From the NCBI GenBank assembly GCA_963823335.1, contig CAWGLD010000007.1:192001-256000 (forward strand): a stretch of DNA of 64,000 nt, read 5' to 3'. The notes beneath the pieces were generated by a model. The model made no database searches. It was not told the DNA's origin and worked only from the letters and a program-made list of their open reading frames with translations. Made by a program: the position numbers and the translations under genes. Shown in pieces: positions 7,734-44,171 of the stretch. Source of the DNA: an uncultured delta proteobacterium. GTDB lineage: Bacteria > Desulfobacterota > Desulfobacteria > Desulfobacterales > B30-G6. Positions within the stretch are counted from its first letter, which is position 1. Each line of letters starts with the position of its first letter.

Positions 7734-8201
7734 TACGCCTCAGACTATAACATGTCCTACAGCCCTTTGAATTCTGGTAGTATCTCCAACAATCCGGTAG
7801 ATATCAGACCCCTAATATTTTACCGGTGTGTGAAAATTATCACCACCGACCGAATCTTGCACTGATAGACCCTACCTTGGCATCGTGGGCATAGCCAGAT
7901 GGTATCGGCAATAATTTCGTTGAATTTGATAACTGGACCTATCTCCATGTATCGGTAGTTGAGTGATATTTGGTTTTCTGAACAGATATCCTAATCAACC
8001 ATCGTGGAAACAGCTAATCCTTGACCTCTTTCCCCATGTTATGTATAAATTTAAAGCGCACTTAAATCACAGCTAATCTGATACTGAATAACACTTACAT
8101 CTGACCTGGCCTCCTATTCAATCTGAAAGAACCTTTCCAAGGCATATCATCTTCTATTAACACCCAAGAGGTCTCCCGAGTTTAAGTAAGGAGGAACAAT
8201 C

Positions 8202-9218
8202 ATGAAAACGGCTGCAATCACCGGAAAAGATCGGATGGAAGCTTCCTTTGAAGGAAAAAAATTGGACCGGCACCCTGTATTGCTGTTGCTAGGTGGCCAT
8301 TACGCAGAAATGGCTGGCTACTCCCTTGAGCAGTTTTTAACACAACCGGAAGCTGCCCTGGAGACCTTGAAGCTAACCTGCAAGGAGCTCGATTCTGATG
8401 TCATGTTTGTTCCGCTCAATCCAATGATGCCGGATGCCCTGGAAGCCTTCAGAAAGCTCTTGGGCAAACTGCCGAGCATCAAAAAGGAAGATATCAAAAA
8501 AAAGCTTCCGAAATGGACCGTTAGAAAACCTCGGGAGGATCTACTTTTCAGCGGGCATCTCGACATGTGTGAAACATGTGTCAATGTATTTTCTGAATAC
8601 CATATCGAAACCATGATCGGCGGTCCATGGAGTTTTGCTCTGGAGTTAAGAGGTGCAAACGAAGCAATGCTGGACATATATGACGACAAACCATTCCTTC
8701 ATGACCTCATGAACTACACAACCGAAACCGTTATTGCCAGATGTTTGACTGTCTTGGATATCGGTGTATTCCCCTTCATAGGTGATCCCTCTGCAGGCAT
8801 GAGTCTGATATCACCGGATGTGTATCGAGAGCACGTACTGCCCTATCATAAAAGAATCGTAGATGCAGTGCATGAAAGGGGTGGTCGAATCGCTTTCCAC
8901 ATCTGCGGACACGTGGATCCCATTTTCGAGGACCTCATCGACCTCGGTATCGATGGACTGAGTATCGACGCGCCGTCATCTCTCGAAAAGCTCTTTGAAT
9001 TGGGGAGAGGAAAAACCACGATCATCGGAAATGTGGATCCCATACTCTTTATCGAGGGAACCACTGATCAGCTAGAAGCAGAAGCAAAAAAATGTATGGA
9101 AATCGCCCAGGGGGAAGCCAAATATGTCATTGGTCCAGGCTGTCAGATACCCCTTATGGCAAATCTTGATAACATCCGAGCATTCACAAAAGCCTGCCAC
9201 ACTTACGGAAAGTTTTAG
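8202..9218 (+). CDS. Uroporphyrinogen decarboxylase / MtaA-CmuA methyltransferase family protein
   Basis: GPWSFA, FHICG, IGNVDP, GPGCQIP. Confidence 0.85.
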   Translation: MKTAAITGKDRMEASFEGKKLDRHPVLLLLGGHYAEMAGYSLEQFLTQPEAALETLKLTCKELDSDVMFVPLNPMMPDALEAFRKLLGKLPSIKKEDIKKKLPKWTVRKPREDLLFSGHLDMCETCVNVFSEYHIETMIGGPWSFALELRGANEAMLDIYDDKPFLHDLMNYTTETVIARCLTVLDIGVFPFIGDPSAGMSLISPDVYREHVLPYHKRIVDAVHERGGRIAFHICGHVDPIFEDLIDLGIDGLSIDAPSSLEKLFELGRGKTTIIGNVDPILFIEGTTDQLEAEAKKCMEIAQGEAKYVIGPGCQIPLMANLDNIRAFTKACHTYGKF

Positions 9219-9360
9219 AAGTTATCTCAAAAAAGTTTTTTAGCCCAATTTCTGTGTTGGTCCCTTGCTTCAACTCCTCGGAATACTTGAGTATGCCTGC
9301 GGGTTGAAGTTCGGGCCCGCCTTGAACTTGAGCCAAAATCCTTTTTTTGAGATGGCTCTA
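9216..9360 (+). mobile_element. MITE copy 1 (lacks ~25 bp internal segment)
   Basis: Terminal inverted repeats TAGAAGTTATCTCAAAAAA / TTTTTTGAGATGGCTCTA; homologous to 10974-11145 and 62574-62745. Confidence 0.8.
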
Positions 9361-9709
9361 GTCAGAATATTTCATAAAGAATTTCGATTAATCTGCAGTG
9401 ATTGGATTTGGCGCGAAATTTGAACTACAACATGTGACTATGAACGAATAATTGAAAATATCTGGCACGTATCTCAGGATTTTAAAAATCTTAGAAACCT
9501 GAAATCTCTCCAACAAAAACAAGGTTATCCGGCACCTGAAATTTTACCGGTGTGCGATTATTATCACAACAGACAGAATCTTGTATTCATAGGTCCTTCC
9601 GTGATACCGTGGTGATCACCAGATGGTATCGGTAATAATTTCATCGTATCTGATAACTGGACATCTCTCCATCTATCACCATGCCAAAAGTTAGCATTCA
9701 GGGGATGCA

Positions 9710-10153: not shown

Positions 10154-10387
10154 AATATCAAAGCATCTTAGCAGTAAAAACAAAGATGTCAGACACATAA
10201 AATTTTACCGGTGTGCGAATATAATCACAATCGACCAAATCTTGCATTCATAACCTTCTCCGTGGTACCGTAAGGATGCCCAAATGGTATCTGACAAATT
10301 CCCAAATTGTCAAATAGTTGGACTTGTCTCCATCTATCCTGTATTGGGATGATAATTTGTGAGCAGCTGGAACCTATAAGGCAACAA

Positions 10388-11849: not shown

Positions 11850-11978
11850 GACTGTATGAAAAAGATACGGGATGATAACCCAAAAATATGTGGGTGCTTC
11901 CCTTCAGCTTTTCGGGCTGTCTTTGCATGGTTTATGAGCCCGTTAAAAATAGTTTAATAAAAACTGAGGTGATAAGGT

Positions 11979-12606: not shown

Positions 12607-12663
12607 ATGTTTATCTACTTAGACACAGAAACCACTGGCTCAGGATCAGAAGACAGACTTTGC
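12607..12663 (+). pseudogene. N-terminal stub of a DEDDh (DnaQ-like) 3'-5' exonuclease
   Basis: MFIYLDTETTG ExoI motif, fused directly to a group II intron remnant. Confidence 0.6.
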
Positions 12664-12816
12664 CATGCCTTCCCCTTAACGCTCACCACAATGGCTCTTT
12701 ACCGATGCAGCTTAAGGTGGTTTGAAGCCTGCTCCTGTAAGCCGACTCCGAGGGGCCTGCCCTCATCTTCTGTGCAGTTACGCACACTTTATATTAAAAG
12801 TGCGCTCGTGGCGCAC
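12660..12816 (-). mobile_element. Group II intron 5' remnant (part of domain I)
   Basis: Minus strand begins GTGCGCCACGAG, the same 5' end as the intact intron at 42918; no RT or domain V seen. Confidence 0.65.
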
Positions 12817-15821: not shown

Positions 15822-16544
15822 CAAGCAAAAACTCACAAGTTTTTGTAAAAACTCGAATATTCCCTATATCATCTTGTTGAAACATACTGGTATCCATACG
15901 ATTCGAATCCAACCTCGTCAAGTACCCCACCGGATTGATCAAATCTGGTTAAGTCGACTTCAACATCGAATCCCAAATACATTTGAGTCAATAAGATGAT
16001 AACAATCAGGCAGTTGCATTTCTATCAGCTTAATATTCACACGATTACCCTAAAACGTGTGTTCACGATTGTATACCGCACGCAAAATTTTCATTAGTAA
16101 ATCTGTGATCACTGGTACTCTCCAACAAAGCGGTAGATCTCAGGCCCCTAAAATATTACCGGTGTGCGAAAATAGTCACAACGGGCTAAATCTTTTGTTC
16201 ATAGGTCATTCCTGTGCCCGATTGACATAACCAGATGGTATCGGTAATTTTACCTTAAAAACTGATACTTGGTCTTATCTCCATGTATCTATACTTTGTT
16301 GATATTTTAGTTTAGTTTCAGCAAGTGGAAATATATGGCACCCCTATTGATCATCTTTTCAATTTGTACACAATATATGTAATTATTTTCCCATTTATTA
16401 TTTACCCCACCTGTAATCTTACATAACTATAAGTAATCAATCATAATATATATATTTTGGGGCCGGTATGGCTCTTGCATAGCATTAAGAGTGCTACCAA
16501 TAATTCTTTAAAAATACTGTAATTTCCGAAACTGTTGCATAGTA

Positions 16545-17219
16545 ATGGAGGTATTAGGCGATATGGAAACCGTTTATGACTTTGATAATTTAAGAAGAAG
16601 AAATGAGAGAAAAGAGTATCATGAACACCCATTTGATGATTACTATGAGTATCTTCAGATAAGCCCCAACGCAGATTTGGAGACCATCGAAAGAGTCTAT
16701 CGTTTGTTGGCAAAAAAATATCATACCGACAACAAAGCTACAGGAAATCTTGATAAATTTGAGCTTTTAACAAGAGCTTATAAAACCGTATCGAACCCAG
16801 AAAAGCGTGCGGCCTATGACGCGAATTATGAAGAGGTTAAAAATAATCAATGGAAGGCAATCGCCAAAGCATCCTCCTCTGAAGGATTTGGGACGGACGC
16901 GCAAATTCGTCGTACAATCTTATCAATACTTTATATAAGCCGCCGGGAGAATCCGTCAAAATCTGGAGTAGGTAATTGGCAATTGGAAAAATTGATGGAA
17001 TATCCGGAAAAAACATTAGAATTTCACATTTGGTACCTGAAAGAAAAGCGTTGGATTGAGCGTTCAGAAACTGGCGGATTTGAAATTACAGCTAACGGAG
17101 TTGATGAAATTGAAAAAGACGGGTTAATTTTGGGAAAAGATCGTTTGCTGACTGAATCATCTGAATCATCTGAAAATTATGAAAGTATTAAATTAATAGA
17201 AGGCGACAGTTCATCTTAA
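16545..17219 (+). CDS. DnaJ-domain protein (cassette gene)
   Basis: DYYEYLQISPNA...YRLLAKKYHTD (HPD altered to HTD)...KRAAYD. Confidence 0.85.
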   Translation: MEVLGDMETVYDFDNLRRRNERKEYHEHPFDDYYEYLQISPNADLETIERVYRLLAKKYHTDNKATGNLDKFELLTRAYKTVSNPEKRAAYDANYEEVKNNQWKAIAKASSSEGFGTDAQIRRTILSILYISRRENPSKSGVGNWQLEKLMEYPEKTLEFHIWYLKEKRWIERSETGGFEITANGVDEIEKDGLILGKDRLLTESSESSENYESIKLIEGDSSS

Positions 17220-17597
17220 GAGTTCAAAATCTTGTGATTTCTCCTACGAAAACAAAGATATCAACCCCCTGATATTGTACCGGTGTGCGAAAATAATCAC
17301 AACAGACCAAATCTTGCATTCATAAGCCCCTCCGTGGTACCTTGGCGATGACCAAATGGTATCGGTAATAATTTCAGAAGGACTGATAACTGGACTTATC
17401 TCCATAAATCAAAGGTAAATGCCAGTATTCCCCTTTGAAAAATTTTTGAAACTTGAAATATTCTTATTACATCAGCGAATCAAGGTATTTTGAAGCTCTG
17501 AATAACTTGTAATATCCAATTTTTTAAAGCTGCTGCTATGTGCTTTTTGATTGTAATGGTCAGTTTCTCGAATTTAAATCAAAAAAAGGAGGACCAA

Positions 17598-18065: not shown

Positions 18066-18319
18066 AAAACTCATAGAACATGGCGGCTTAACTCGGACAG
18101 CATAAAGATATCAGGCACCTGAAATTTTACCGGTGTGCGAAAATAATCACAACCGCCCATTTCTTGCATTGATAGGAGCTCCTGTGGTACCTTGGCGATG
18201 ACCATATGGTATCGGTAAAATTTGCATTGGGCTTGATAACTGGACTTCTCTCCATGTATCTGTAATGCGATAATATCCCGATACGGAAGGAATGATGGGT
18301 ATGGTAGATAGGATTTATT

Positions 18320-18583
18320 ATGGGTAGAGATAAAAATAAATTCAAGTATTTTGAAAATAAGGAATGTGAGTTTTACCCTTGTCACATTGAAGGTCAGAAT
18401 TGTTTGTTTTGTTACTGTCCTCTTTACTGGATACCAATTGATTGCGAAGGTAAATATAGAGTGTTAAGAGATGGCATAATAGATTGTTCTAATTGTACTA
18501 AACCACATGATTCTGATGGCTGGGATTTCGTTCAGAATAAGCTCAGAGAAGCTTTTAAATGGATAGCTGATAACAGGGAATAA
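18320..18583 (+). CDS. Cysteine-rich small domain protein (cassette gene)
   Basis: CEFYPCH...CLFCYCPLY...DCSNCTKPH. Confidence 0.85.
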   Translation: MGRDKNKFKYFENKECEFYPCHIEGQNCLFCYCPLYWIPIDCEGKYRVLRDGIIDCSNCTKPHDSDGWDFVQNKLREAFKWIADNRE

Positions 18584-19751: not shown

Positions 19752-20117
19752 AGCTTTTATTACTCCAACGAAAGTGCAGTTATCAGACCCCTAAAATATT
19801 ACCGGTGTGTGAAAATAATCACAGCCGGTCAAATCTTGCATGGATAGGGTCTCCCGTGGTACCTTGGGGATGACCAAACGGTATCGGTAATATTGCCGTT
19901 GATCTTGATAACTGGACTTCTCTCCATGTATCTGCAATTTAATATTTCTTTGATACATACAAGAAATTATTTCGCAAAAGATATAATTTGAAACCCTTCA
20001 TAAGAGTCCCCTATTTTTATGCTTGTAATTCATTTGCAACGAATCAATAATTAACCTTGTACGAAAGACGGATTGCCGAAGAAAATTGGTATTCTGCCAT
20101 ATGGCCGAAAAAAAATT

Positions 20118-21314: not shown

Positions 21315-21899
21315 ATGTCAAGCGACTTAAACGGAATTGTGGTAACAAGGTGTGCCACCGCCCAGCCAGTCGCTGAAACCTGACCGTCCTGATTGTTAGT
21401 GTGATTCCATGTATCTCAAACAAAACGGTAGATATTGGGTACCCTAAAATAATACTGGTGTGCGAAAATAATCACAACAGGCCAAATCTTGTATTCATAA
21501 GCTCTACCGTGGTACCGTGGCGATGACCAGATGGTATCGGCAATAATTTCATTGAGCTTGATAACTGGACTTGTCTCCATGTATCGGTACTTGGCTGATA
21601 TTTGGTTTTCAGACAAGATACCACATGCTTTTCACTTCCAAAAATGATTTGACAATATCAAATAATTGCAGCATAGTTTTTTAAACATACTTAAAGTTCA
21701 GTTGAAACTGGATTAATTTTGTCTTAAATCTACAATTCCTATCGCATCTCTATCTACTGACCTCAATCACAACATCGATTTGATCTGCAATCTGTTCTTC
21801 TTTCATTCCTGATCATTTGATTTTCATTACTTTGTGGTGTTGAAAATTCCTTTGGAATTTTCTTTATTGTCAAACAACAAACATTAAAGGAGTGAAAAA

Positions 21900-22376: not shown

Positions 22377-22925
22377 ACCGGATCCTAACATTCGGAGATA
22401 TACAAGTTGTCAGTTGCAGACCGCTCCACGGGGCTGTAACTGTTTTTGATGACACATCACAATTGAATTAGCAGTGAACTTTTAGTTTAAAGAAAAACAG
22501 ACTTTATGTCGTACAGCTCCAACAAAAACAAAGATATCAGACCCCCGAAAAATTGCCGGTGTGCGAAAATAATCACAACAGGTCAAATCTTGCATTCATG
22601 GAGCCTGCCATGCTACCGTGGACATTACCATATGATATCGGTAAAATTTGCATCGGGCTTGATAACTGGACTTCTCTCCATGTATCTAAAGTTGGGACAT
22701 TGCATGAGTACCGCCAGAACAACCTACTCAAAATGTTTGAAACACCTCATTTCTTGACCGTTCCTAACAAATCATGTATGTACTCTATATTGCACCCAGT
22801 TCACATCTGAGCTGAAGCTGATTGTCCACTATTGTGCCTGAGTTGACCTGAACTTCAACCTGTTCATACCTTCCCAAGCAATATTATTTCCACAGCATCT
22901 ATCCATTGATCTGAAAGGGGGCATT

Positions 22926-23375: not shown

Positions 23376-23539
23376 CCTGTATTGTACTATCTCCAACAAA
23401 AACAAAGATATCAAGCGCCCAAAATATTACCGGTGTGCGAAAATAATCGCAACAAACAGAATCTTGTATTCATGAGCCCTGCCGTGGTACGCTGGGCATA
23501 ACCAGATGGTATCGGTAATATTTGCATCAAACTTGATAA

Positions 23540-25216
23540 TTGGACATCTCTCCATATATCAGTGATTACTCGATAGTTGGTTATAATGGAAGAGCTATGA
23601 ATTTGCTTCAGAATAGGAAGTACATGACTTTTCGTATCCTTGCCACGTTATTAGGTCTGGTATCTTTTTATTCTTTCTCTGCCGCATCGATTATCATCTA
23701 CCCAACAGGAGCTTGGCAAGCTTCTACTCCTGAAGAACAAGGGATGGAATCTCAAGCCCTTGCTGAAATGATGGAGTACATAAAGAAAAACAGTTTCAAC
23801 ATTGATAGTATATCAGTTGTACGAAACGGTTTTATGGTTTTCGATGCATACTTTTGGCCATTTTCAAAGGGGCAAAAGCATATTATTCATTCATGTACAA
23901 AAAGCATTATGTCAGCATTGATAGGCATTGCTATCGATAAAGGATACATTCAAGATGTGAACCAATCCATTATCGATTTTTTCCCAGATAGAGCATTTGC
24001 GAATAATAGTGACCTTAAAAAGTCCATTACGCTTGAAAACCTACTAATGATGGCATCAGGCTTGAAATGCAGGGACTCTTATCTTTATCGCTGGAAGGGA
24101 TTGTTTGAAATGCGATATAGCAGGGATTGGGCTCAATATGTTCTCGACCTTCCCATGGTTGAGCCTCCAGGTAAAAAGTTTGAATATTGCAATGGAGTCT
24201 CATATCTCCTATCTGTCATTATCCAAAATTCAACAAATATGACAACTTTAGATTTTGCAAGAGAGCATCTATTTGATCCCCTTGGCATATTTGAAATTGG
24301 TTGGGCAAATAGTCCTCAGGGTGTTGATATCGGATATGGTGAGATGTGGTTAAAGCCTCATGATATGGCCAAATTTGGATGGCTATATCTAAATAAGGGA
24401 CAATGGGGCAACAAACAGATAATACCTTCAACATGGGTTGAGGTTTCTACACGTGGGCATATCGATACTACGCTTTTTGATCAATATGGGTATCAGTGGT
24501 GGATCGATTCTGCTGGATATTATATGGCTGTTGGATATAAAGGCCAGCGTATTTTCGTTGTGCCGGAAAAAAATATTGTGGCGGTCTTTACCAGTGATCT
24601 GACCGGCAGGAATAGTTTAGTTTCTAAAAATTTGCTGGACTATTACATAATTCCAGCTGCATCTTCACCTACCGTATTATCACCAAACGTGGAAGAACAA
24701 GCCAGACTGGGTGCATTAATAAATAGTGTCGCCAAGGCTCCATTGGCCGGATTTGTTTGGATTTCAGAAAATAAGGGAATAGCGAAAGATGGTGTTTTTA
24801 AGAGAACAGCATCACCGGCTTTTAAGTTTGAGTATCCATTGGGTAGTAAAAAAATAGCAATTGCCTATCCAAGTCAGATAATGAGAATGAGAACTCCAAG
24901 AGACTTTGAATTTTCTGCCTTTGTTGGTGATATCCCTGAGGGTTTAGAGTTAGAAGACTTCGGGCAAAAATTTTATGCCAAGGAGATAGAGAATGTTGGT
25001 TCAGATATCAAAGTCATTATTAATAAAGAAATCACGCTTAAGTGTGGTACGAAAGCATATCAAACGGAACTTACATGGGTATTGAATAATACTATGCTGA
25101 TAAGGACTTTTCTCGTAACAGCATACAAGGATGGGAAATATGTATTTATAGACGCTCACCCATGGAAAAATGAGAATAACGCTGAACTAATTGTTCAGAG
25201 TTTAATATTTAGATAG
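23540..25216 (+). CDS. Serine hydrolase, beta-lactamase family (cassette gene; true start probably downstream of 23560)
   Basis: SCTK (SxxK), FEYCN, DMAKFGWLYLNKG, YGYQWW. Confidence 0.9.
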   Translation: MDISPYISDYSIVGYNGRAMNLLQNRKYMTFRILATLLGLVSFYSFSAASIIIYPTGAWQASTPEEQGMESQALAEMMEYIKKNSFNIDSISVVRNGFMVFDAYFWPFSKGQKHIIHSCTKSIMSALIGIAIDKGYIQDVNQSIIDFFPDRAFANNSDLKKSITLENLLMMASGLKCRDSYLYRWKGLFEMRYSRDWAQYVLDLPMVEPPGKKFEYCNGVSYLLSVIIQNSTNMTTLDFAREHLFDPLGIFEIGWANSPQGVDIGYGEMWLKPHDMAKFGWLYLNKGQWGNKQIIPSTWVEVSTRGHIDTTLFDQYGYQWWIDSAGYYMAVGYKGQRIFVVPEKNIVAVFTSDLTGRNSLVSKNLLDYYIIPAASSPTVLSPNVEEQARLGALINSVAKAPLAGFVWISENKGIAKDGVFKRTASPAFKFEYPLGSKKIAIAYPSQIMRMRTPRDFEFSAFVGDIPEGLELEDFGQKFYAKEIENVGSDIKVIINKEITLKCGTKAYQTELTWVLNNTMLIRTFLVTAYKDGKYVFIDAHPWKNENNAELIVQSLIFR

Positions 25217-26663: not shown

Positions 26664-27202
26664 ACTTTGAATAACTGAAACTGTGATGGCTAAGACTGGT
26701 TCATTTAAAAGATATCAAAACCGGCCCGGACCGGTACAGGGGAAGTGTTGCCTAAAATTTGCGGAGAATATTGGCTTGACTTTATTCTGGTACTCCAACT
26801 AATCCACGGTGAAAGGGGCCTCTGAAAAGCTTTGATACCATACTATCCAGCGAATTCCTGACCTAAAAGGTAAGTCTGTCAATTCAAGTATAAGCCAGGA
26901 CATTGTCAAAAGACGGACATTACATTACAAATTCACCACACAAGATTGACTTGACCTGACACCCTTAATTGATGGTATCTGCAATAAGGCCCGAATGATG
27001 ATTGTCTCCATGTATCGGTAATTGGATATATTTGGTTTCATGCTTGACTGAAAATATTTCCTTCTGTATATCAATTAAAACACTTAAATTTCATCTCTTC
27101 TGAAGTTGATGTGCCTTTCCTAAATCTACACTTCATTCTAAGTTGCCCTGTCAAAGCTTTAAACTGCTCTTTTCTCACTTCGATCATTAATAGAAACCAA
27201 AT

Positions 27203-28120: not shown

Positions 28121-28396
28121 TCATAAGAGGTAAAAGAATTCTCTTGCAGGGTCAGAAATGGCCCTGCCTTTTTTACAGATTGCCAATATCTCCAACGATT
28201 CGGTAGATATCAGACACTTAAAATATTACCGGTGTGCGAATATATTCACAACAGGTCAAATCTTGCATTCATAGGTGTCTCCATGGTACCTTGGGGATGA
28301 CTATATGGTATCTGACAATTTATCAGATTATCGGATAGTTGGATTTGTCTCCATCTATCTGTAATGGCTGTTATTGGATCATAAGGAAGTTCGATT

Positions 28397-28837: not shown

Positions 28838-28949
28838 ACTCAGACATGGTTCACGTGCTCGAAAAAAAAGATATCTGCAATTTGGTCTAACTGTGAATAT
28901 TCTCCATCTATCTGCAATTGAAATACAAGGTTCACTAAAAGGAGGAATC

Positions 28950-29769: not shown

Positions 29770-29869
29770 GCATGTGAACTATGGCTGGATATCCTTGTAT
29801 TGTCGCCTACAATGTGGTATTAACAAAACACTCATGCTAAAATAATTAATGGTCAAAAAATAATACCAC

Positions 29870-30280: not shown

Positions 30281-30741
30281 CAATTGACAAAGACACATTT
30301 CACGGAACCTAAGTAGGGTCAATTTTAGCCCTATTCTTTTTGGTGACATCTCCAAACGGTAGATATCAGACCCCTGAAAATTTACCGGTGTGCGAAAATA
30401 ATCACAATAGACCAAATCCTGCATTGATAGGGTCTCCCATGGTGCGCTGGGCATGACCAGATGGTATCGGCAATAATTTGGTTGAGTTTGATAACTGGAC
30501 TTATCTCCATCAATCACAGATTTCAAATTCAATATTTATTAGCGTAACCTTCGGTTTTGACGTATTTTCCTCAACCCCAAGATGTTGCGGTTGTAGATTC
30601 TTATAATCTGAAAGCGACGGATCATGCTATCAGATATTTCATTGCAGGTGATTGTCTCCACATCTCACACTTGCATCACAGGATAGCTAAGAAAAGATGA
30701 CATGATTGGAGATTCATATTTTCAGAATTTAGGAGGGAAAA

Positions 30742-32204: not shown

Positions 32205-32669
32205 CCAATCATCGTATATAGGAAAATGCAGACGGCTATTTGCAGATACTTGCTATATGCTAAACACCAGATGTAGTATGGAGTGATTTCACCAAAGTGT
32301 GAAGATTACTGGTATAAATGTTGACCTTGTAGGGTGTTACTATCTCCAACAAAACATTAGATATCAGGCACTTGAAAAATTGCCGATGTGTGAAAATAAT
32401 CACAACAGACGAAATCTTGCATTGATAGGCCCTACCGTGGTACCGTGGGTATAATCGAATAGTTCAGTAATTTGAGCAGACCGTTGATCCATGTATCACC
32501 ACCTTGTGTGAGCTTATGACATTGGCAAGCTTAACACTATCTCATTCCTCTGCTTAACCTTTCACACAAGTTATTGACAGTCCATCGAGTTGGAATCTTT
32601 ACAATATCAAATTGTGGCATTATTCTTCCTATAGTTTCAGCGAAAACATTGAATGAGAGGAGAACCGAT

Positions 32670-32978: not shown

Positions 32979-33329
32979 ATTCTTGTTTGCACCCATATAG
33001 CACATGTTTTTCAGTCCTTTAAAATCTGGTGAAACCTCCAACAAAACGTTAAATATCAACCCCTTAAAATATTACCGGTGTGCGGAAAAAAACAACAAAA
33101 TTTGCATTAATAATGGTCCCCATGCTACCGTGATGATGACCAAATGGTATCGTTAATAATTTGGTTGAGTTTGATAACTGGACATCTCTCCATACATCAC
33201 CGGTGGAGGCATTTCAGCATTACTTAGAAACTCTATTGCATTTTGAGCTCTATTGACGTTATAAAAAATAGGGTTATTTTACTTACAGTATTCTTTTTTT
33301 GGAAATAACTTAAACAAAAGGAGGATAAC

Positions 33330-33533: not shown

Positions 33534-33925
33534 AAATTACAGACTCCTCGAACATATGTTAGATCCATGAAGTTTAATGGTTCTTAGCATATCACAACCA
33601 TGGGTATTTTTAGCCCGCCTGCATTTTCAAGTTATCATGGGGAAAGTCGGCCAAGCCGATTTTCCCCTTTTTGCATTTTCGTTAGAAAATTGATATCTGT
33701 AATGGTGATTGTGGCCGGAAAGATTCCTGAATTTCATGGTATCGCAGGATTTTTGAAGGACCTGAAACCGGCTATGTTCTCCATGTATCTTTATTGCTAA
33801 AATAATTAGTGTTTGTTACTATGACACTCAATTGTTCATGGTCATTGCAAGTCGTTACCAATTAGCCTTAATCATAGGTAACGCATTATTAACTTCTATA
33901 TATTATCTGCGAAGGAGGATGTTCT

Positions 33926-34606
33926 ATGCGAAATGGATTCCCGAAACACCTGAAGATGGTTACGGTATTATTTTGCGTTGGTTTGCTTTTGGCTTTTGTC
34001 CTTAGTTGCAGTGGTGGTAGCGGTGGTGGTGGTGGCGGTGGTGATGATGACGATCAGTCTCTTACAGTCACCGGCAAATCCGGGAATCTTGTTAACTTGG
34101 ATGGTACTTGGGAATCAGAATGTGTAGCCGATATAGCGGATGGTGAGTCAGAAATGTGGGTTATGACTATTTCAGGTTCTACATTTTCACGGAATGATAG
34201 CAATTGGTTTGACTCAACGGACTGTTCTGGAGCATTCGACGTTACAGTGACTATAAGCGGGACAGTCGTTTTGGGGGATGAGCTTACAGTTTCAATGAAC
34301 GGCTCAAATGTTACCGCCACAGAAAATGATATCACACTAAGCTCATATGAAGCCACAATTAATAATCCAGATTTAGTTGCAGGTATAAATGCAGACGAGG
34401 AATGTGGCTTTGATGACTGGGTGGTAGACACTCCCAAGGATCTTCTCGGAACATCTTGTGCGCCTGATTCAGACATAAAGGACGTAGTATATGTCGATGA
34501 CACAGTTGATCCTAACGTTTGGAATAGCGGAGATGGTGAAGGACCAAATGATGTAAATGGCTATCCAGCTGAGATTGATCCAGATACTGCAATGGAGCGA
34601 ATGTAG
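33926..34606 (+). CDS. Acidic lipoprotein (cassette gene)
   Basis: Lipobox VLSC then Gly linker; hairpin terminator at 34639-34678. Confidence 0.75.
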   Translation: MRNGFPKHLKMVTVLFCVGLLLAFVLSCSGGSGGGGGGGDDDDQSLTVTGKSGNLVNLDGTWESECVADIADGESEMWVMTISGSTFSRNDSNWFDSTDCSGAFDVTVTISGTVVLGDELTVSMNGSNVTATENDITLSSYEATINNPDLVAGINADEECGFDDWVVDTPKDLLGTSCAPDSDIKDVVYVDDTVDPNVWNSGDGEGPNDVNGYPAEIDPDTAMERM

Positions 34607-35308
34607 ATTACTGTGTGGCAGGATGACAATGTGTAATCAAATAGTAGCAGCAGGCTTGAACTCCTGCTGCTACTATTTCAGCAGAGAATCATCAGAATAA
34701 AGATTCTATTTGGTTTGATATATGAGTTAGGGATGTGTGTTTCCATCCATTAAACAGGCGCAGCTGAAGGAGTGATATATCATGGCTCTATTCACTTTTA
34801 TGCTCCTTGTAAAATTGCAGATTTCTCCAACAAAACGGTAGATATCAGACCCCTAAAATATTACCGGTGTGCGATTATAATCACAATCGGCCGTTTCTTA
34901 CATTGATGGGTGTTTCCGGTGCACGATTGACATAATTAGATGGTATCGGTAAAATTATTTGATATTCCAAAATGTCAGGTTATCTCCATGTATCGGTACT
35001 TGGCTGATATTTGGTTTTCAGACAAGATACCACATGCTTTTCACTTCCAAAAATGATTTGACAATATCAAATAATTGCAGCATAGTTTTTTAAACATACT
35101 TAAAGTTCAGTTGAAACTGGATTAATTTTGTCTTAAATCTACAATTCCTATCGCATCTCTATCTACTGACCTCAATCACAACATCGAGTTGATCTGCAAT
35201 CTGTTCTTCTTTCATTCCTGATCATTTGATTTTCATTACTTTGTGGTGTTGAAAATTCCTTTGGAATTTTCTTTATTGTCAAACAACAAACATTAAAGGA
35301 GTGAAAAA

Positions 35309-35785
35309 ATGAAAGTTTACTCAAGAGTTTTATTCTCTCGAAAATTTATTGTGGTTGTTAGTTTCCTTTTACTTTTTGGTATTTTTATTATGCCTGCCAT
35401 GGCATCTGACCGCTTTGTTAACAATGGCGATGGTACTGTTACAGACACAAAGACTGGACTGATGTGGTCAGCAGCAGACAATGGGAATCACATAAACTGG
35501 AAGGATGCCTGTTCTTATTGTCAAAGTTGCAGTGTTGGCGGCCACACAGACTGGCGAATGCCAACATTGGCAGAACTAAAAAGTCTTTATGCTCCTGTAA
35601 TAACGAACGAATATGGTTACCATATTACTACATTTATAGGTACTACTGCCGAAAGTTGTTGGGCTTCAGAGACTCGTGGCGAGGAAGCTGCCCGTTTTAA
35701 TTTCAGGTATGGGCAAGAGTATTGGCTGCGACAATTTCACTCAGGCTCAGGTAGGGCCTTACCTGTGCGGAATGTTAATTATTAA
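35309..35785 (+). CDS. DUF1566 secreted protein, copy 2
   Basis: Protein identical to 21900-22376. Confidence 0.88.
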   Translation: MKVYSRVLFSRKFIVVVSFLLLFGIFIMPAMASDRFVNNGDGTVTDTKTGLMWSAADNGNHINWKDACSYCQSCSVGGHTDWRMPTLAELKSLYAPVITNEYGYHITTFIGTTAESCWASETRGEEAARFNFRYGQEYWLRQFHSGSGRALPVRNVNY

Positions 35786-36417
35786 ACCGGATCCTAACAT
35801 TCGGAGATATACAAGTTGTCAGTTGCAGACCGCTCCACGGGGCTGTAACTGTTTTTGATGACACATCACAATTGAATTAGCAGTGAACTTTTAATTTAAA
35901 GAAAAACAGACTTTATGTCGTACAGCTCCAACAAAAACAAAGATATCAGACCCCCGAAAAATTGCCGGTGTGCGAAAATAATCACAACAGGTCAAATCTT
36001 GCATTCATGGAGCCTGCCATGCTACCGTGGACATTACCATATGGTATCGGTAAAATTTGCATCGGGCTTGATAACTGGACTTCTCTCCATGTATCACCAG
36101 TTGACCTATTATTTGACATGCGATTTAGATCTCGTTATATATATTCATCCATATACCGCTACCGCAGAGTCTTACCTGTCATTAACCTGATGACAGGGCT
36201 GATGTGATCCTGATCTTCTGAATTTTCGATCCTCTTGTCATTTTATCCATTATTATATCAACATGTGATCGATATGGAAATTTATCTGATCATAGGATGC
36301 CTGAAGTTTCTGATGTGATGCCTCTGGAGACGATATTATTTCGCTTTGGAGGCCAATTGGGTTGGCAATCATTCGGTCAAATTAGTGAATTTAGGATAAG
36401 AACAGAAGGGGGAAATA

Positions 36418-36891: not shown

Positions 36892-37002
36892 ATGTCCAAC
36901 AGTGATAGCGAAAAGGTCACACGCAAGCTCTGCTCCATTCTTTCTGCCGATGTTAAGGGGTATAGCCTCCTCATGGCAGATGATGAGGTGCATAGCCGTG
37001 GA
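36892..37002 (+). pseudogene. N-terminal fragment of a class III adenylate cyclase, cut at repeat R17
   Basis: MSNSDSEKVTRKLCSILSADVKGYSLLMADDE resembles the RKLxAILSADVKGYSRLM start of cyclase proteins. Confidence 0.7.
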
Positions 37003-37398
37003 TATCCAACAAAACGTTAGATATCAGGCACCCTAAAATTTACCGGTGTGCGAAAATTATCACAACAGACGGAATCTTGCATTGTTAAGCCCTACCGTGA
37101 TACCTTCGCGATGACCAGATGGTATCGGTAATTTTATCTGAAAAATTGATAACTGGACTTCTCTCCATGTATCTGTATTGTGACGAGCTTTGGTTTTACG
37201 ATAATGCGCATCACTGTTTTGATTGTTCTGGAATACCATCTGAAATGGAAGGATAATTTGGGACTATTGATTGCAATGAGAAGGCAGCAAAATCTGCATG
37301 GGGTGATGTGACATATTTCTAAATTAAGTAGCAGTAAACGCCTTGGAAATTCACCATCAAACGCACAGAATATTCTGAGTCACAGCAGGTATCTTTAT

Positions 37399-37974: not shown

Positions 37975-38152
37975 CTCTTAAAAGTTCTTCATAATATTCC
38001 AATTTATGATATCTGGAATTTGGTTCAACTGGTAATATTCTCCATCTTTCTGTATTTCGATGATACTTGGATTATTGACCATATCTCCAAACAGCATTGT
38101 TGGAACAGCAAATAGAGATTAAGAATAAGTAATTTTGTCGAGGGGAAAAACA

Positions 38153-38957
38153 ATGGGTATATTTCAAGATAAGGTAATCATCGTAACTGGAGCGTCCGAA
38201 GGGATAGGACGTTCTTTATGTTTAGCACTTTCTTCTCAGAAACCTAAACTTGTAATGGCCGCGAGAAATAAAGACCGACTTATGCAATTACAGGAGGAGG
38301 TAGAATCTAAAGGGTCAACATCAGTTGTTGTGCCAACTGACGTGAGCGAAGAGAAGGATTGTAAAGATCTTATTGAAAAAACCATTTCAGAATTTGGTCG
38401 TTTAGATGTTCTTGTCAACAATGCTGGCAGAACCATGTGGACAACGCTCGAAGATATGGCAGAACCATCTATTATTGAACAACTTATGCGCATCAATTAT
38501 TTTAGGCGCTGCCTATTGTACATATTATGCACTATCCCACCTGAAAAAAAGTAAAGGACTAATTGTGGGAATTTCAAGTCTTGCCGGTTTGAACGGTGTG
38601 CCAACCCGAACAGCTTATTCAGCGACCAAACATGCCATGTTTGGTTTTTTTGATTCGCTCAGAATTGAATTGATGGGAACCGGCGTTACAGTGACGATGA
38701 TAGCTCCGGATTTCGTTCTCAGTGAAATTCATCGACGTGCATTTGGCAAAGACGGAAAACCGCTTGGATCAAGCCCGTTGCAGGAAGACAAAGTTATGAC
38801 TGCAAATGAATGTGCATCCAGAATTATAAAGGCTATGGAAGACCGGGATCGCCTGGCAATTCTATCATTTAGAGGAAAACTTGGTCGGTGGATGAAGCTT
38901 ATCGCGCCGGGATTTATTGACCAGATAGCTTCAAAAGCAATTCGCGATGCCAAATAG
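38153..38957 (+). pseudogene. Frameshifted SDR oxidoreductase
   Basis: TGASEGIG and NNAG in one frame; YSATK in another; shift at the T-run near 38500. Confidence 0.85.
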
Positions 38958-39157
38958 TTGCATGTAGGCAATCTGGCACAAAACCTGGGCACTACTCCTA
39001 TAAAACGGTAGATATCAGACCCCTAAAAATTTACCGGTGTGCGAAAATAATCACAATAGACCAAATCCTGCATTGATAGGGTCTCCCATGTTACGCTGGG
39101 CATGACCAGATGGTATCGGCAATATTTTCAAATTATCGGATAGTTGGACTTGTCTCC

Positions 39158-40937
39158 GAGACTGTCGAAAAAGATCCTCCTATCTAACCTTAAAAGATGT
39201 ATAATTATCTCTATAAACCGTTGACATATCCTACCGTTATGCTAGTCATTGTTTAGGTAAATGAGCAAATGACAATGGCCAAACATACAGGAATTAGGCA
39301 TGGCAAAGTATAAGCACTACGACTACTCTCAAAGTTTATTGATACCTGTTTCCCTCCAAAAACAATTGATGCCAGGGACGTTAGAGTTCGCCATCCACAC
39401 CCTTGTGGAACGGCGGATGGATATGTCCGTATTTGATACGAGGTATCAAAACGACGATACCGGCCGCAGTGCCTATAATCCTAAGATACTACTGAAAGTT
39501 GTCTTGCTTGCTTATTCACGTGGGTTGATATCATCACGCCAAATCGAACGAGCATGTTGTGAGAATGTGACTTTTATGGCGATGTCATGCAACCAACGTC
39601 CTGATCACAGCACCATTGCTTCATTCGTTTCTTCTATGGAAGATCAAATTCAACCTCTGTTCAGCGATATTCTTTTAGTATGCGAGCAAGAGAATCTTTT
39701 AGGCGGAACCTTCTTTGCCATTGATGGCTGCAAGCTATCGTCCAATGCATCCCAAGAATGTAGTGGGAAAATAGATGATTTGAAGAAAAAGAAAGAAAAG
39801 CTTGAACATAAGATTAAGTCATTGGTTCGAGATCATCTTGAAAAAGACCAATCAGACGATAGGGCCAAGACACAGATGGCTGCAAATCATGACAAACAAA
39901 CTGAGAGACTTAAGCGGCAGGCTGAAAAGATTGAGCAATGGCTTTCGGAAAACGACAAAAAAATTGGCGCCTATGGAAAAGAACTTCACAGCAATGTAAC
40001 TGACAACGATTCTGTTAAAATGCATACCTCACACGGAACCGTTCAGGGTTATAACTGTCAGGCGTTAGTCGATTCCAAGCACCAGGTAATTGTTCATGGC
40101 CAGGCAATAGGGAAAGGGCTTGATCATGAAAATCTGCCGCCGGTGATTGATGGTGCCAAAGAAAATATTCAAAGCATCGGCAAGCCAGAGGACTATTTCG
40201 AAGATAAGGTATTAACAGCTGATGCAAGCTACCACAGCATAACGAATATCAATAAATGCAATGACGAAAAGGTAGATGCTTATATTCCAGACAACAAATT
40301 CCGTAATCGAGATGAGAGGTTCTCAAGTCGGATAAACAATCAGTCAAATTCTAAAAAGTTTACATTTGCAGATTTTAAATATGACTGCAAACAGGATCAC
40401 TATGTTTGCCCAAATGGTAAACGGCTTAAGAGAAATGGGAAACCTGGTTTACACAGGGGCAAACTTTTAAAAAGATATATTTCTCGGGAGATAGATTGTA
40501 GGTCCTGTCGACTCAGGGCTAAGTGTCTTAGGTATGAAGATGCAAAACAGCGACATTTTACGTACTATGTGGATGCATCTGGCAAGAATATATCCCATGA
40601 AATGATCAAGAAGATTGAATCTGAAAAAGGTCGTAAAATCTATCCGCGAAGAATTGCCATCGTTGAACCAGTATTTGGAAACATCCGCATCCAAAAACGA
40701 ATGGACAGGCTTAACTTAAGGGGAAAGATAAAGGTAAATATTCAGTGGTTGCTGTACTGCATGGTACACAATATAGAGAAAGTGGCTAATTACGGGCATG
40801 CATAGGCTGTACAGACCAAATAAGTAGGCTGAATCTGTAAAATATGATAGCATCTTGAAGTAAAAAAGATGGATCTATTGAAATCGAGAATGTCGAGCGA
40901 TGAGCCGGTTCGCCGAAATGCCTTTTTCGACAGTCTC
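39158..40937 (+). mobile_element. IS1182-family insertion sequence
   Basis: 16-bp perfect terminal IR GAGACTGTCGAAAAAG / CTTTTTCGACAGTCTC; apparent TCC duplication. Confidence 0.92.
39300..40805 (+). CDS. IS1182-family transposase
   Basis: GRSAYNPKILLK, PDHSTIA, AIDGCK, GYNCQ, ADASY, VEPVFGNI. Confidence 0.92.
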   Translation: MAKYKHYDYSQSLLIPVSLQKQLMPGTLEFAIHTLVERRMDMSVFDTRYQNDDTGRSAYNPKILLKVVLLAYSRGLISSRQIERACCENVTFMAMSCNQRPDHSTIASFVSSMEDQIQPLFSDILLVCEQENLLGGTFFAIDGCKLSSNASQECSGKIDDLKKKKEKLEHKIKSLVRDHLEKDQSDDRAKTQMAANHDKQTERLKRQAEKIEQWLSENDKKIGAYGKELHSNVTDNDSVKMHTSHGTVQGYNCQALVDSKHQVIVHGQAIGKGLDHENLPPVIDGAKENIQSIGKPEDYFEDKVLTADASYHSITNINKCNDEKVDAYIPDNKFRNRDERFSSRINNQSNSKKFTFADFKYDCKQDHYVCPNGKRLKRNGKPGLHRGKLLKRYISREIDCRSCRLRAKCLRYEDAKQRHFTYYVDASGKNISHEMIKKIESEKGRKIYPRRIAIVEPVFGNIRIQKRMDRLNLRGKIKVNIQWLLYCMVHNIEKVANYGHA

Positions 40938-41005
40938 TCCATTAATCACCAGTTTCAGATTCAAGATTAATTAGCGTCTTCAGTTTCGCCAAATTTCCAC
41001 AACCC

Positions 41006-42918
41006 GTAGAGTCGAGGATGGGCGCGGTAGCCATTGCCCCGTTTCCCATCCCCGCTCATCAAACCGGACGTGCGGAGCTACCGCATCCGGCTTTCCGACT
41101 GGCTTCACCTTAAGGCACACGCCGTGTAGCATATTTCCTCGGCCTGGGTAACATAACACCAAGGTCACCAAAGACTTTCTCCGAAGGAAACTGATGGATG
41201 CCTCGCGAATGCACTTTATGCCGACTGACCAGGAAGCGCCTTACACGGTTGTAGACATTGCGCTCAACAGCACGGTACGCAATCTGTGTGGTACCATAGC
41301 AAAAGTAAGTACACCATCCACGCAATAGGACATTCAGCCGGTCACAAACATCCGGCCACGCACCCTTCTCACCGGGTCTAAGCATGATTTTTACCTTCTG
41401 CTTCAACCGTTTTACGCTTGTTTTCGATGGACTGGCTCCAGTGTACCACGTCCCTTTCTTCCGAAACCATATGCGGCCAAAAGTGTAACCAAGAAAATCA
41501 AAATTGCCCCTGCAGGCATCTCTGACAACGGTCTTATCCTGATTCAGCTTCAGTCCCAGTCTATCCATAACGGCACTGGTCCACTGCAAAGCTTCATCAG
41601 CTTTGCCATGACTCAGAATAACAAAATCGTCGGCATAAGAGACAACATGGGCACGGAATACTTCGTTACACCCTTTAACACGCCAGAATTTCAGAAAGCG
41701 GTTCATGTACAAATTCGCCAAAAGAGGACTGATCACACCGCCCTGCGGTGTCCCTTTCTTGCTTTTGCGGCCACCGCTCATCTGCCCTCGACCATCTTTG
41801 TCTCGATTCTCGACCGGTGCTTTAAGCCAGAGATTGATCAGCCGGAGCACATGACGATCCACAATCCTGCGAGCTACACATTGCATCAGCTCGTTGTGTG
41901 GAATCGTATCAAAATACTTCGACAAATCTGCATCAACAACATCTGTATACCCTTTGCAGAGTAGTTCATGGACCTTACGGATCGCATCCAAGGCACTACG
42001 CTTTGGACGGTAACCGTATGCATTGGGTTCCAGATCTGCCTCAAAGATCGGTTCGAGAACGAGCTTGGCGGCTGTTTGAATCACCCGGTCCCGTATGGTC
42101 GGTATCCCTAAAGGACGCCATCCACCACCCGGTTTAGGGATCTTCACGCGTAAAACTGATTGAGGACGGTACGCCTTTGTGCGCAGCTCCTCCCTGATCC
42201 CAAACAACCACTCATCCACTCCCCCCGACTCTACTTGCTTGAACGTCATCCCATCCACACCCGCAGAACCCCCGTTGGTTTTAGCCAATCGATAGGCGTG
42301 GTTCAGAATGTCAGTCCGATATATCTTGTCGTAGAGCAGATAGAAGCGAAAGTCTGGTTCCGCCTTCGCCTTAAGATAAAGCTTTCTCTGGAAAGTCCGA
42401 ATCTTATCTGGTGTTTGTAGGCTCATCGCCAATCACCTCTTCTCGTCTCCTTTAAAAGCACGCCAGAAGCAAGGGTCCTTCCCTCCACCGGCATTACCCG
42501 GCATCACAGGTAATATGACCCTCTCCGACTCCCGCCTGAATCAACACACGATCGTGTTGTTACGGATCGCAACTCCGTACCCAGGACGGGTCTCCCACGT
42601 TGCCCAAGACACCTTCCTGACATGCTGTCCCCATTACCCCGGTGGATCGAGATGGGCTGGTCGGTTACGTCCCTATCCCGCTTCGGCCTTCCCCGAATCT
42701 TGGGCGGGTCGGCATCCACAACTGTCCTTTCGGGGCCTGCTCAGGGTTCACTCGCGTTACTGCCTGCCAGGTTGCTGCAGCCCTATAGGCTTACATTTGT
42801 CCCCAGAGCTTCAGCAGGAAGGTCTCCCTGTCCCACTGTCTGGGTAGCTACCGGGATGAACCGATAATTTCCCGGACGGAACTTTCATCCGTTGGTGTAT
42901 TGCGCCCTCGTGGCGCAC
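41006..42918 (-). mobile_element. Complete group II intron
   Basis: 5' GTGCG at 42918; domain V AAGCCGGATGCGGTAGCTCCGCACGTCCGGTTT with AGC triad; 3' end CTCGACTCTAC at 41006. Confidence 0.93.
41110..42432 (-). CDS. ltrA: Group II intron reverse transcriptase/maturase (no endonuclease domain seen)
   Basis: RPLGIPTIRDR, GTPQGGVISPLLAN, YADD, FDFLG, X domain LRGWCTYF. Confidence 0.95.
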   Translation of the reverse strand: MAMSLQTPDKIRTFQRKLYLKAKAEPDFRFYLLYDKIYRTDILNHAYRLAKTNGGSAGVDGMTFKQVESGGVDEWLFGIREELRTKAYRPQSVLRVKIPKPGGGWRPLGIPTIRDRVIQTAAKLVLEPIFEADLEPNAYGYRPKRSALDAIRKVHELLCKGYTDVVDADLSKYFDTIPHNELMQCVARRIVDRHVLRLINLWLKAPVENRDKDGRGQMSGGRKSKKGTPQGGVISPLLANLYMNRFLKFWRVKGCNEVFRAHVVSYADDFVILSHGKADEALQWTSAVMDRLGLKLNQDKTVVRDACRGNFDFLGYTFGRIWFRKKGTWYTGASPSKTSVKRLKQKVKIMLRPGEKGAWPDVCDRLNVLLRGWCTYFCYGTTQIAYRAVERNVYNRVRRFLVSRHKVHSRGIHQFPSEKVFGDLGVMLPRPRKYATRRVP

Positions 42919-43086
42919 CAAGATCTTGTGGTTGCAATGTTTCCATTGTTTGCAAGCCACAGATCGTGGTATCAATAATTTAACATAATGGTAATGTTCT
43001 CCTCATCGCTTTAAACCACGTCATAAGCAATAGGATCTGTAAAATATAATACAGGACAGACTTCATAGAATCCAAAGGGGGTTGAT

Positions 43087-43578
43087 ATGGAAAGTGCAGT
43101 AAGGAAAATATTTATATTGGCAATCATCTCAATAGTGAGCTTTATCTTCACTATTCCAGTTTCAGCAGAGGACATTGAGGAGACCGTCAAATACAAAGCA
43201 CCAACTCTGGATCAGACACTTGGCTTCATCCAGGAAATGACATCGGGAACGTTAGGTTTTGAAGAGGGCGAATGCATACTGATCACCAGTGCTGTAATAA
43301 ACAGGGCTACCTTTGAATATAGAATACCGCTAAAGGAGATCAACCCAAGTCCAGGATCTGTAAAACAGCGCCTGACCTATGTTGACGTTGCCGTGGATAA
43401 CTATAAAAATAAAATTCAGCGCATAGGCAAAGATGGGAAAGAGGAATGGAAAAGCAAAGTGAGTATATGGACTGAAAACGAGTTGTCTGCTAAGCAGGTA
43501 GCAAATGCCTTGCGTTATTTGATCAGCATTTGTGGTGGAAAGACTTGTGTCGATTGTGATCCTTTTCCGTGGCAATAA
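43087..43578 (+). CDS. Secreted hypothetical protein (cassette gene)
   Basis: Signal peptide; followed by R19. Confidence 0.7.
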   Translation: MESAVRKIFILAIISIVSFIFTIPVSAEDIEETVKYKAPTLDQTLGFIQEMTSGTLGFEEGECILITSAVINRATFEYRIPLKEINPSPGSVKQRLTYVDVAVDNYKNKIQRIGKDGKEEWKSKVSIWTENELSAKQVANALRYLISICGGKTCVDCDPFPWQ

Positions 43579-44171
43579 AGATGATACCATATATTGGGGG
43601 TCTTAAGATCAAGATAAACTGGAGACTTCTAACGTAAATCAATTACCTCGCACCGTGGATGTCTCCAACAAAAACAAGGTTATCAACCCCCTAAAAATTT
43701 ACCGGTGTGCGAAAATAATCACAATAGCCCAAATCTTGCATTGGTAGGATCTCCCATGGTACCGTGGGCATGACCAGATGGTATCTGACATTTTCACCCA
43801 TTTTCGGAAAACTGTGGTTATCTCCATATATCGGTAACGCAGCACCTTTGGGTTTTCTGAATATATTGGCCTTTTTAAACGTCCAAAAAACTCATTTCTT
43901 GACCAATCCCCACAGGTCATGTATGTATCTTATATTGCACCCAAATCTCACCTGATCTGAAGCAGCGTCTCCATAACTGGACCTGAACTGACCTGATTCT
44001 CAATCTGTCCGTACCTTTCTCTTCGTATCATCTTATCTTAACCGCAACCTAATGAACTGAAGGCGATCTCCATGCCCACTAAAGAAAATATCACACGAAC
44101 CATTTAAACCAAGATATTCGATAAACAGGGCACTATTCTACAGTTCAAGAAATGAAAAAGCGGAGGCAATT

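Follow-up and report, generated by a model that had tools for sequence, protein, structure and literature searches.

A 64,000-nt stretch of contig CAWGLD010000007.1 from an uncultured marine sulfate-reducing bacterium of the Desulfobacterales, hereafter the window, contains a tRNA-integrated island in which rows of unrelated accessory genes are interspersed with copies of a ~172-nt repeat family that we designate F1. Our reading of this arrangement, to which we assign a probability of about 60% from the sequence evidence, is that a site-specific gene-cassette system uses the repeats as its recombination sites, and that this system would be integron-like in its action but composed of different parts, with Rec277, a tyrosine recombinase encoded within split F1 sites, as the likeliest enzyme. 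An earlier note on this DNA had proposed a distinct system for cassette capture and shuffling, and this proposal is supported by near-identical gene blocks that are bounded by cores of the repeat in different neighborhoods.

Of the natural systems that collect single genes and reshuffle them by site-specific recombination, integrons are to our knowledge the only one that is well understood, and their action is bound to the integrase IntI and to one kind of folded site. A working analogue that employs another recombinase subfamily, double-stranded-looking direct cores and a site-nested recombinase would mean that cassette platforms evolved more than once, and would widen the search for gene-capture systems to uncultured sediment bacteria. 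Here a putative autonomous element can be seen alongside its gene-less derivative, which may bear on the origin of cassettes, an open question for integrons. A recombinase with short cores and an inherent capacity for cassette exchange could also find use in genome engineering, and the conserved slip in an A run of a tyrosine recombinase gene would be a directly checkable recoding signal. A full-text search of the literature, which did not cover supplementary files that could hold recombinase classifications, returned nothing that described the F1 repeat, a cassette array without IntI in the Desulfobacterales, or a tyrosine recombinase that depends on a slip. The IntDes subgroup treated in PMC8138268 concerns Desulfovibrio and does not apply here. 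Throughout this report G000 denotes the genome of the window, other G numbers (G001, G004 and so on) denote related genomes, C numbers denote contigs of a genome, and L numbers denote other loci or metagenome contigs.

The F1 repeat and its direct cores

Repeat finding returned families of 17-18 copies whose union comprises 19 positions in the window. The F1 unit of ~172 nt runs from ATCTCCAAC to TCTCCATGTATC with a mean column identity of 66% in the 19-row alignment, and a hidden Markov model (HMM) built from these rows has 19 matches on the window's contig, all of them on the plus strand between window positions 7780 and 43832, with none in the island flanks on that contig. Repeat finding, alignment and HMM thus agree with the earlier description of 19 co-oriented repeats of nearly constant length. 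Each copy in the window is located just 3' of a plus-strand gene. That these genes are unrelated, as was also claimed, is evident from the Pfam families found between the repeats, which include URO-D, GDSL lipase, MFS, DnaJ, Ni-SOD (nickel superoxide dismutase), rhodanese-YceI, acyltransferase, two PF00144 hydrolases, pilin and thioesterase, among others.

The claim that the repeats occur only in the island holds for the contig flanks but not for the genome, as G000 contains 88 F1 matches (53-54 of them full length) in about 10 clusters on 7 contigs, with each cluster largely co-oriented. Genome-wide, an open reading frame (ORF) of at least 60 aa on the same strand ends no more than 200 bp upstream of 43 of the 54 full-length copies, versus 199 of 500 random positions, and the median gap between the end of the ORF and the full-length copy in G000 is 48 bp. 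When the HMM from the 19 copies was run against this and related genomes, a check that the earlier note had suggested, the repeat proved to be family-wide, in clusters: among 40 relatives, 13 of the 14 that belong to the same family carry it, as does 1 of the 26 that belong to other families of the order. Cassette order across strains was also compared and is not invariant, since in five congeners the tRNA-Arg locus has no more than one repeat in place of the window array within the 8-20 kb compared. A second G000 array on the minus strand (C1:1509695-1514824) ends beside a tRNA-Glu gene and a 226-aa integrase-like ORF (L012:7954-8723 corresponds to G000 C1:1515953-1516722), and therefore at least two arrays are in tRNA-linked islands.

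Two short direct cores bound each F1 repeat, with TCTCCAAC as the 5' core and TCTCCATNNATC as the 3' core. The 3' core has the form TCTCCAT-NN-ATC, and the two ends of F1 are direct repeats (TCTCCAA / TCTCCAT). In the window TCTCCATNNATC occurs 21 times, always on the plus strand and between positions 7942 and 43832, as compared to 0.18 occurrences expected from 100 shuffles. A box with the sequence G(G/A)TATC(T/G)G(T/C)AAT has copies before and just after the 3' core of F1 and is common to F1 and two other repeat families, F2 and F3. Many of the genomic matches to TCTCCATNNATC that lie outside F1 (29 of 86) are on F2 and F3. The array is built on the F1 repeat, as the earlier note held, but not on that repeat alone, as at least three more cassette boundaries in the window (27005, 28901 and 33778) carry the 3' core on non-F1 sites of other families.

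There are also mobile elements situated within the 3' core. G004 contains three identical 2,570-bp IS91-type elements, each placed after TCTCCAT-NN and followed by NN-ATC, that encode a Y2_Tnp / Zn_Tnp_IS91 transposase together with a 328-aa tyrosine recombinase. Copies of this element that are 84% alike are present in G001 and G005, and none was found in G000. At three G000 sites (window 39164-40935, C4:535482 and C1:1767114) the inverted ends of an insertion sequence (IS) with a DDE_Tnp_1_6 transposase abut the TCTCC of the 3' core, which suggests that this IS has a target preference for the core.

Shared blocks and the nested recombinase Rec277

The arrays of G000 and four congeners were cut into units and compared. 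Blocks that are 90-99% identical are shared between arrays, genomes and metagenome contigs, and are bounded by cores while their neighbors differ. For example, a 1.1-kb duplication in the window (21574... and 34983..., 99.6-99.7% identical) has its left boundary at the 3' core, with upstream repeats that are dissimilar up to TCTCCAT, and a whole unit of gene plus site has been duplicated with both ends within the 3' core. The left boundary is also in the 3' core when G000 C4 is compared with G001 C18 (99.2% over 780 bp, in genomes whose tRNA-flank DNA is only ~82% identical), G000 C1 with G007 (93% over 1,491 bp), G004 with G007 (97.5% over 962 bp), and the window's Ni-SOD cassette with metagenome contig L137 (98.3% over 763 bp). 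After the Ni-SOD block, the next 2.3 kb of L137 matches a different G000 contig at 93%.

Right boundaries fall mainly into two classes. In four inter-genome pairs they lie at or just before the 5' core (the window's short-chain dehydrogenase cassette versus G004, G004 versus G001, G000 C4 versus G001, and the window's rhodanese-YceI cassette versus G001), while in two intra-genome duplications they lie at the 3' core. Judging by two informative junctions, the point of exchange at the 3' core falls between its two N, with TCTCCATN on one side and NATC on the other. A scripted change-point test on 48 boundaries located about 21 within ~20 nt of a core, versus 92 of 5,000 random 30-nt windows, a comparison that is confounded by the similarity of flanking repeats, and for this reason we rely on the hand-checked junctions. 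From these block boundaries we infer that the cassettes are mobile.

The island integrase was regarded in the earlier note as the only site-specific recombinase apart from IS transposases. A better candidate is present elsewhere in the genome, where Rec277, a XerA-like tyrosine recombinase of 277/278 aa, is encoded antisense inside a split F1 site (G000 C1:163905-164735). In two G000 F1 copies an opposite-strand Rec277 gene interrupts the repeat between HMM positions ~67 and ~112, with the copy on C9 being truncated. The flanks of the gene correspond to F1 HMM positions 4-67 and 112-176 in G000, G001, G015 and further loci, and among 60 loci of species-representative genomes at least one repeat half lies beside the gene in 18 and both halves do so in 7. 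Rec277 has a PF00589 domain (E 1.2e-17) and fits the tyrosine recombinase superfamily, whose catalytic residues are R..K..HxxR..H/W..Y. Among NCBIfam models it scores highest against archaeal XerA, where its 102 bits fall short of the cut-off, and its closest solved relative is an archaeal Xer-like recombinase (PDB 4a8e, E 3.4e-11). The catalytic-motif region is conserved relative to PDB 4a8e and 1a0p (HxLRH..., LGHS..., ...TQIY). Rec277 is the most likely catalyst on these grounds, ahead of the island's phage-type integrase, to which it is only distantly related. Host Xer genes occur in all genomes examined, and host XerC/XerD may also have a role at the sites. No dyad symmetry was seen by eye around the 3' core.

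Within one genome, the similarity between Rec277 copies begins exactly at the reverse-complemented 3' core and stops exactly at the reverse-complemented 5' core, which makes the resulting ~1.07-kb unit look like an autonomous form and the 172-nt F1 repeat look like its gene-less derivative. Compared with the in-frame form, the Rec277 gene of 26 of 37 loci carries additional A near codon 19, where the run is A9 in 21 loci, CA8 in four and A10 in one, and the gene in these loci can be read through only after a slip. In nine relatives the frame is intact, with A8 in one of them and a AAAGAAAA-type sequence in the other eight. Since the run stays out of frame among proteins of 60-97% identity, we read it as a putative programmed slip. 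Database homologues carry only the names "integrase" or "XerD", and many are annotated with 249-251 aa, as would be expected if gene callers start after the slip. In two loci, L034 and L035, the Rec277 gene runs into a sequence starting with GTGTG that is unlike the usual 3' flank, and in L035 the 5' half of the repeat is found ~2 kb further on; this sequence could be a group II intron insertion.

If the repeats are indeed cassette recombination sites, strand exchange at the 3' core would move a unit consisting of leader, gene and site, as the block boundaries suggest, and exchange at the 3' core together with the next 5' core would swap the gene alone between resident sites. The presence of two direct crossover cores per site would thus make either gene plus site or gene alone exchangeable, with the latter amounting to natural recombinase-mediated cassette exchange. 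Over repeated events, unrelated accessory genes would accumulate within islands as co-oriented arrays, and cassettes would be passed between arrays and species. Rec277 would catalyze the exchange, with a one-base slip on the A run keeping its levels low. More tentatively, and at slightly less than even odds, this may be a second, independently built integron-type platform in which the own attachment site of Xer-like elements of the Desulfobacterales was turned into a portable cassette junction, with a nested, slip-throttled recombinase and a two-core exchange.

A number of observations weigh against a Rec277-driven cassette system. Rec277 is found in 7 of 14 family genomes, versus 13 of 14 for the repeat, and both G005 and G012 have many repeats and no Rec277 match, which could be explained by the incompleteness of metagenome-assembled genomes or by another enzyme. 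The Rec277 module does not always head its array and can lie within it, so there is no attI-like platform. Relatives of Rec277 in two other genomes appear transposon-like, with two scattered copies each. One of these genomes (G041, a Desulfosarcina chromosome) has no gene-less derivatives, and the other (G042) has a handful of scattered gene-less copies of ~230-250 bp and no arrays. Consequently, arrays are not a general property of this recombinase family. Many block boundaries fall inside genes, and one right boundary is mid-repeat in the most conserved 24-nt stretch of F1. Neither an excised circle nor an empty site was seen, and the contigs of public runs are too short to reveal array variants. 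Parts of window 16001-26000 are contained in 20 public runs from 10 studies, and Logan contigs from 4 runs over window 16001-36000 are a few hundred bases long, with joints that link different repeat copies with extra letters between them; unevenness in their coverage of cassettes is given no weight here. For the solitary copies at G000 C1:1737055 and C5:9855 synteny with congeners stops at the repeat, so these do not provide a clean empty site. Finally, the binding sites and cleavage chemistry are conjectured from the sequence.

Alternative explanations and known systems

The alternative that survives best, although we regard it as unlikely, is that F1 is only a non-autonomous copy of a Rec277 transposon, similar to a miniature inverted-repeat transposable element (MITE) or to a doublet of repetitive extragenic palindromes (REPIN), that inserts site-specifically at TCTCCA-type targets and accumulates in islands. 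What lies between the copies would then be ordinary island genes and not mobilized units. This explanation would account for the ~1.07-kb autonomous form being bounded by the same two cores, for F1 ends that match this enzyme-coding element in the same and related genomes, and for the absence of arrays in G041 and G042. It would also account for Rec277 homologues being found mostly on metagenome contigs of ~1-1.5 kb, as multi-copy elements are, and A-run slips are typical of transposase genes. However, F1 copies are 75-85% alike, which argues against a recent burst, while gene blocks that end at cores are 93-99% identical across genomes. One co-oriented site per gene, positioned so regularly past the stop codon, would additionally be hard to obtain by insertion into a 6-7-nt target. 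A gene plus site unit has also been duplicated with both of its ends in the 3' core.

The REP-associated tyrosine transposases (RAYTs) that accompany REPINs are HUH (Y1) enzymes, and MITEs have inverted ends and variable target duplications. F1 and Rec277 resemble REPIN/RAYT and IS/MITE pairs in that one or two recombinase-bearing masters per genome are accompanied by tens of short gene-less copies that match the ends of the master and are intergenic after genes. They differ in that the enzyme belongs to PF00589 with an XerA-type best NCBIfam match, in that the F1 alignment has constant direct cores and no terminal inverted repeat, and in that the DNA between copies acts as exchangeable units.

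It is highly improbable that F1 is a structured RNA, a terminator, a 3' untranslated region element or a passive repeat, with mosaic arrays arising by homologous recombination between copies. The position of F1 just past stop codons, the single mid-repeat block boundary and an antisense frame that is open in some copies would fit such a role. However, the RNAalifold energy is -5.4 kcal/mol and a single pair of 21 is compensated, no long-range Watson-Crick covariation was detected by mutual information in 53 F1 copies (in which subfamily structure was seen), and no Rfam match to the repeat was found. Consensus scans for a terminator or promoter role remained at chance level, with 6 terminator-like sites versus 5.6 expected. 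Most informative boundaries are in cores of 7-12 nt with unlike sequence on one side, which are too short for RecA-type exchange. There is also an antisense frame of 42-54 codons on the minus strand of F1 (ME..P.I......DTIW....VVIIFAHR, window 7953-43832) that starts from an ATG in the 3' core. A maintained small protein was considered and rejected, because only 7 of the 19 copies have the frame open, while 10 have it broken and 2 have no ATG. The frame does show conservation at the peptide level.

The least probable explanation, to which we give very little credence, is that F1 is an ordinary attC site, either in a cluster of attC sites lacking integron-integrases (CALIN) or in a sedentary integron whose IntI is elsewhere or was lost from the assembly. 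The layout is that of an integron, with single co-oriented genes, a site at the 3' end of each and cassettes that differ between strains. NYYYAAC-like 5' ends are present in 39 of 53 F1 copies and a GTTRRRY-like word is near the 3' end in 23 of 53. True IntI, defined by NCBIfam TIGR02249 with a cut-off of 265 bits, is present in 3 of 15 family genomes (G009, G010 and G013). However, nothing in G000 scores above 88.5 bits, an IntI over the cut-off is absent from all of the repeat-rich genomes (G000, G001, G004, G005, G007 and G012), and G009 has IntI and no repeat match. With both strands considered, only 2 of the 53 full copies contain the attC words RYYYAAC and GTTRRRY together. The site ends are direct and not inverted, and the junctions between TCTCCATN and NATC lie 3' of the GTT-like word. 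An attC-like DNA hairpin was tried and rejected, with mean z-scores over 53 copies of -0.77 on the plus strand and -0.68 on the minus strand (DNA parameters, 30 mononucleotide shuffles each). Likewise rejected were three candidate inverted-repeat stems that are 56-67% Watson-Crick and whose variation mostly breaks pairing instead of compensating. The earlier statements that there is no IntI, which can be made for the repeat-rich genomes, and that the ends are not those of attC have therefore both stood up. Rec277 itself scores 34.6 bits on the IntI model, below the cut-off, in a comparison in which the IntI-specific extra domain was not looked for directly, and the recombinase of the cassette system probably differs from IntI.

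Ni-SOD homologues that are 78-86% identical to that of the window are present on metagenome contigs L139, L142, L144 and L145, where they are followed by an imperfect palindrome of ~95 nt that is shorter than F1, an observation that would favor the attC explanation. The palindrome starts like the 5' end of window copy 6 (TTAACTCGGAC...). It ends with the word (G)GTATCT(C/A)CAAC.(T)ATC in three of the four contigs, the word being degenerate in L144, and it ends in a TCTCCAAC-type word in 3 of 5 sequences compared. This palindrome may represent a fourth family of sites, or it may be a true attC.

We conclude that the finding is real, an integron-like cassette system whose sites are different and whose recombinase is probably different too, and that it belongs with neither the integrons nor the CALINs. 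Its mechanism is deduced from the junctions. As in integrons, rows of mostly single, unrelated and co-oriented accessory genes are each followed by a recombination site, the unit boundary is inside the 3' end of the site so that the last bases of the site belong to the next cassette, and there are several site families with common short cores. The sites also attract further mobile elements, here an IS and an IS91-type element, much as IS1111-attC elements and group IIC-attC introns home to attC in integrons. There are also clear differences. The repeat-rich genomes have no IntI and the candidate enzyme is instead a XerA-like protein of 277 aa. The site ends are direct (TCTCCAA / TCTCCAT) with no supported hairpin, while those of integrons are inverted (RYYYAAC / GTTRRRY). 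Both ends of the site act as boundaries, and many cassettes have leaders of 100-300 bp. Moreover, in place of an attI platform there is a recombinase gene nested in the site that can lie within the array.

The Xer-dependent dif/pdif gene modules of Acinetobacter plasmids (PMC7399989) offer another comparison. Features in common with the present system are discrete genes, short tyrosine-recombinase sites on either side of them, movement between replicons without an integron and an Xer-type enzyme. A dif-type site has two arms of ~11 bp on either side of a 6-bp spacer, and the pdif sites are 28-bp dif-like sequences in alternating orientation that are used by host XerC/XerD. In contrast, the system described here has sites of ~172 nt with two direct cores, long co-oriented chromosomal arrays and a dedicated, site-nested recombinase gene. 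A further parallel is found in streptococcal integrative and conjugative elements (ICEs), for which a model exists of site-specific accretion of integrative and cis-mobilizable elements (CIMEs) in tandem at one att site. The likeness to ICE/CIME accretion consists of tandem units between att-type sites, most without a recombinase of their own and mobilizable in trans. The difference is that there are dozens of single-gene units of ~1-2 kb, and that these are in a larger tRNA-integrated island with its own unrelated integrase.

Feature positions and minor observations

The positions of the repeats, of the other sites with a 3' core, and of the island borders are collected in Table 1.

Table 1. 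Features of the window array and its island, with the IS91-type elements of G004. Positions are those of the window unless a locus is named.
Feature	Position	Strand	Basis or remark
tRNA-Arg(CCG), left border of island	6846..6921	+	ARAGORN; Rfam tRNA
F1 copy 1	7780..7953	+	5' core TCTCCAAC ... 3' core TCTCCATGTATC
F1 copy 2	9504..9677	+	
F1 copy 3	10171..10338	+	5' core degenerate
F1 copy 4	16118..16289	+	
F1 copy 5	17236..17410	+	Ni-SOD cassette starts at its 3' core
F1 copy 6	18099..18260	+	5' core variant CTCGGAC
F1 copy 7	19759..19932	+	
F1 copy 8	21412..21585	+	duplicated cassette begins at its 3' core (21574)
F1 copy 9	22514..22686	+	duplicated cassette ends here
F1 copy 10	23388..23560	+	
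3' core TCTCCATGTATC on F2	27005..27016	+	second repeat family; GGTATCTGCAAT... upstream
F1 copy 11	28186..28359	+	
3' core on short F2-like element	28901..28912	+	between two ORFs
F1 copy 12	30348..30515	+	
F1 copy 13	32341..32497	+	internal deletion near 3' end
F1 copy 14	33034..33198	+	
F3 family repeat	33640..33789	+	terminator-like hairpin ... GATATCTGTAAT ... TCTCCATGTATC; 7 copies in genome
F1 copy 15	34821..34994	+	second copy of duplicated cassette starts at its 3' core
F1 copy 16	35923..36095	+	99% identical to copy 9
F1 copy 17	37002..37173	+	
F1 copy 18	38992..39163	+	3' core split by an IS
IS with DDE_Tnp_1_6 transposase	39164..40935	+	inside 3' core of copy 18 (TCTCC, IS, TCCATTAATC)
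F1 copy 19	43658..43832	+	last of array
Island tyrosine integrase, 375 aa	48497..49624	-	PF00589; adjoins right border
Partial direct repeat of tRNA-Arg 3' end, right border of island	49857..49920	+	75% over 64 nt
IS91-type elements of G004	L098:2978-5547, L099:6332-8898, L131:2234-4803		

Several further features of the window were observed. An IS110-family (DEDD) transposase gene is located within a cassette unit (25467-26663). The short-chain dehydrogenase is present in two overlapping frames (38135-38554 and 38406-38957, overall 38135-38957) and is probably a frameshifted cassette gene, the 3' part of which is 96% identical to a G004 cassette. A sequence of ~140 bp that is unrelated to F1 is repeated at 98% identity inside the island (9215-9357) and outside of it (62573-62741). 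Directly after the IS-split 3' core of copy 18 there is a group II intron on the minus strand (40950-42890) with a reverse transcriptase/maturase ORF at 41110-42432, also on the minus strand, and Rfam domains D1-D4 at 42626-42885. A second group II D1-D4 fragment is located on the minus strand at 12653-12764.

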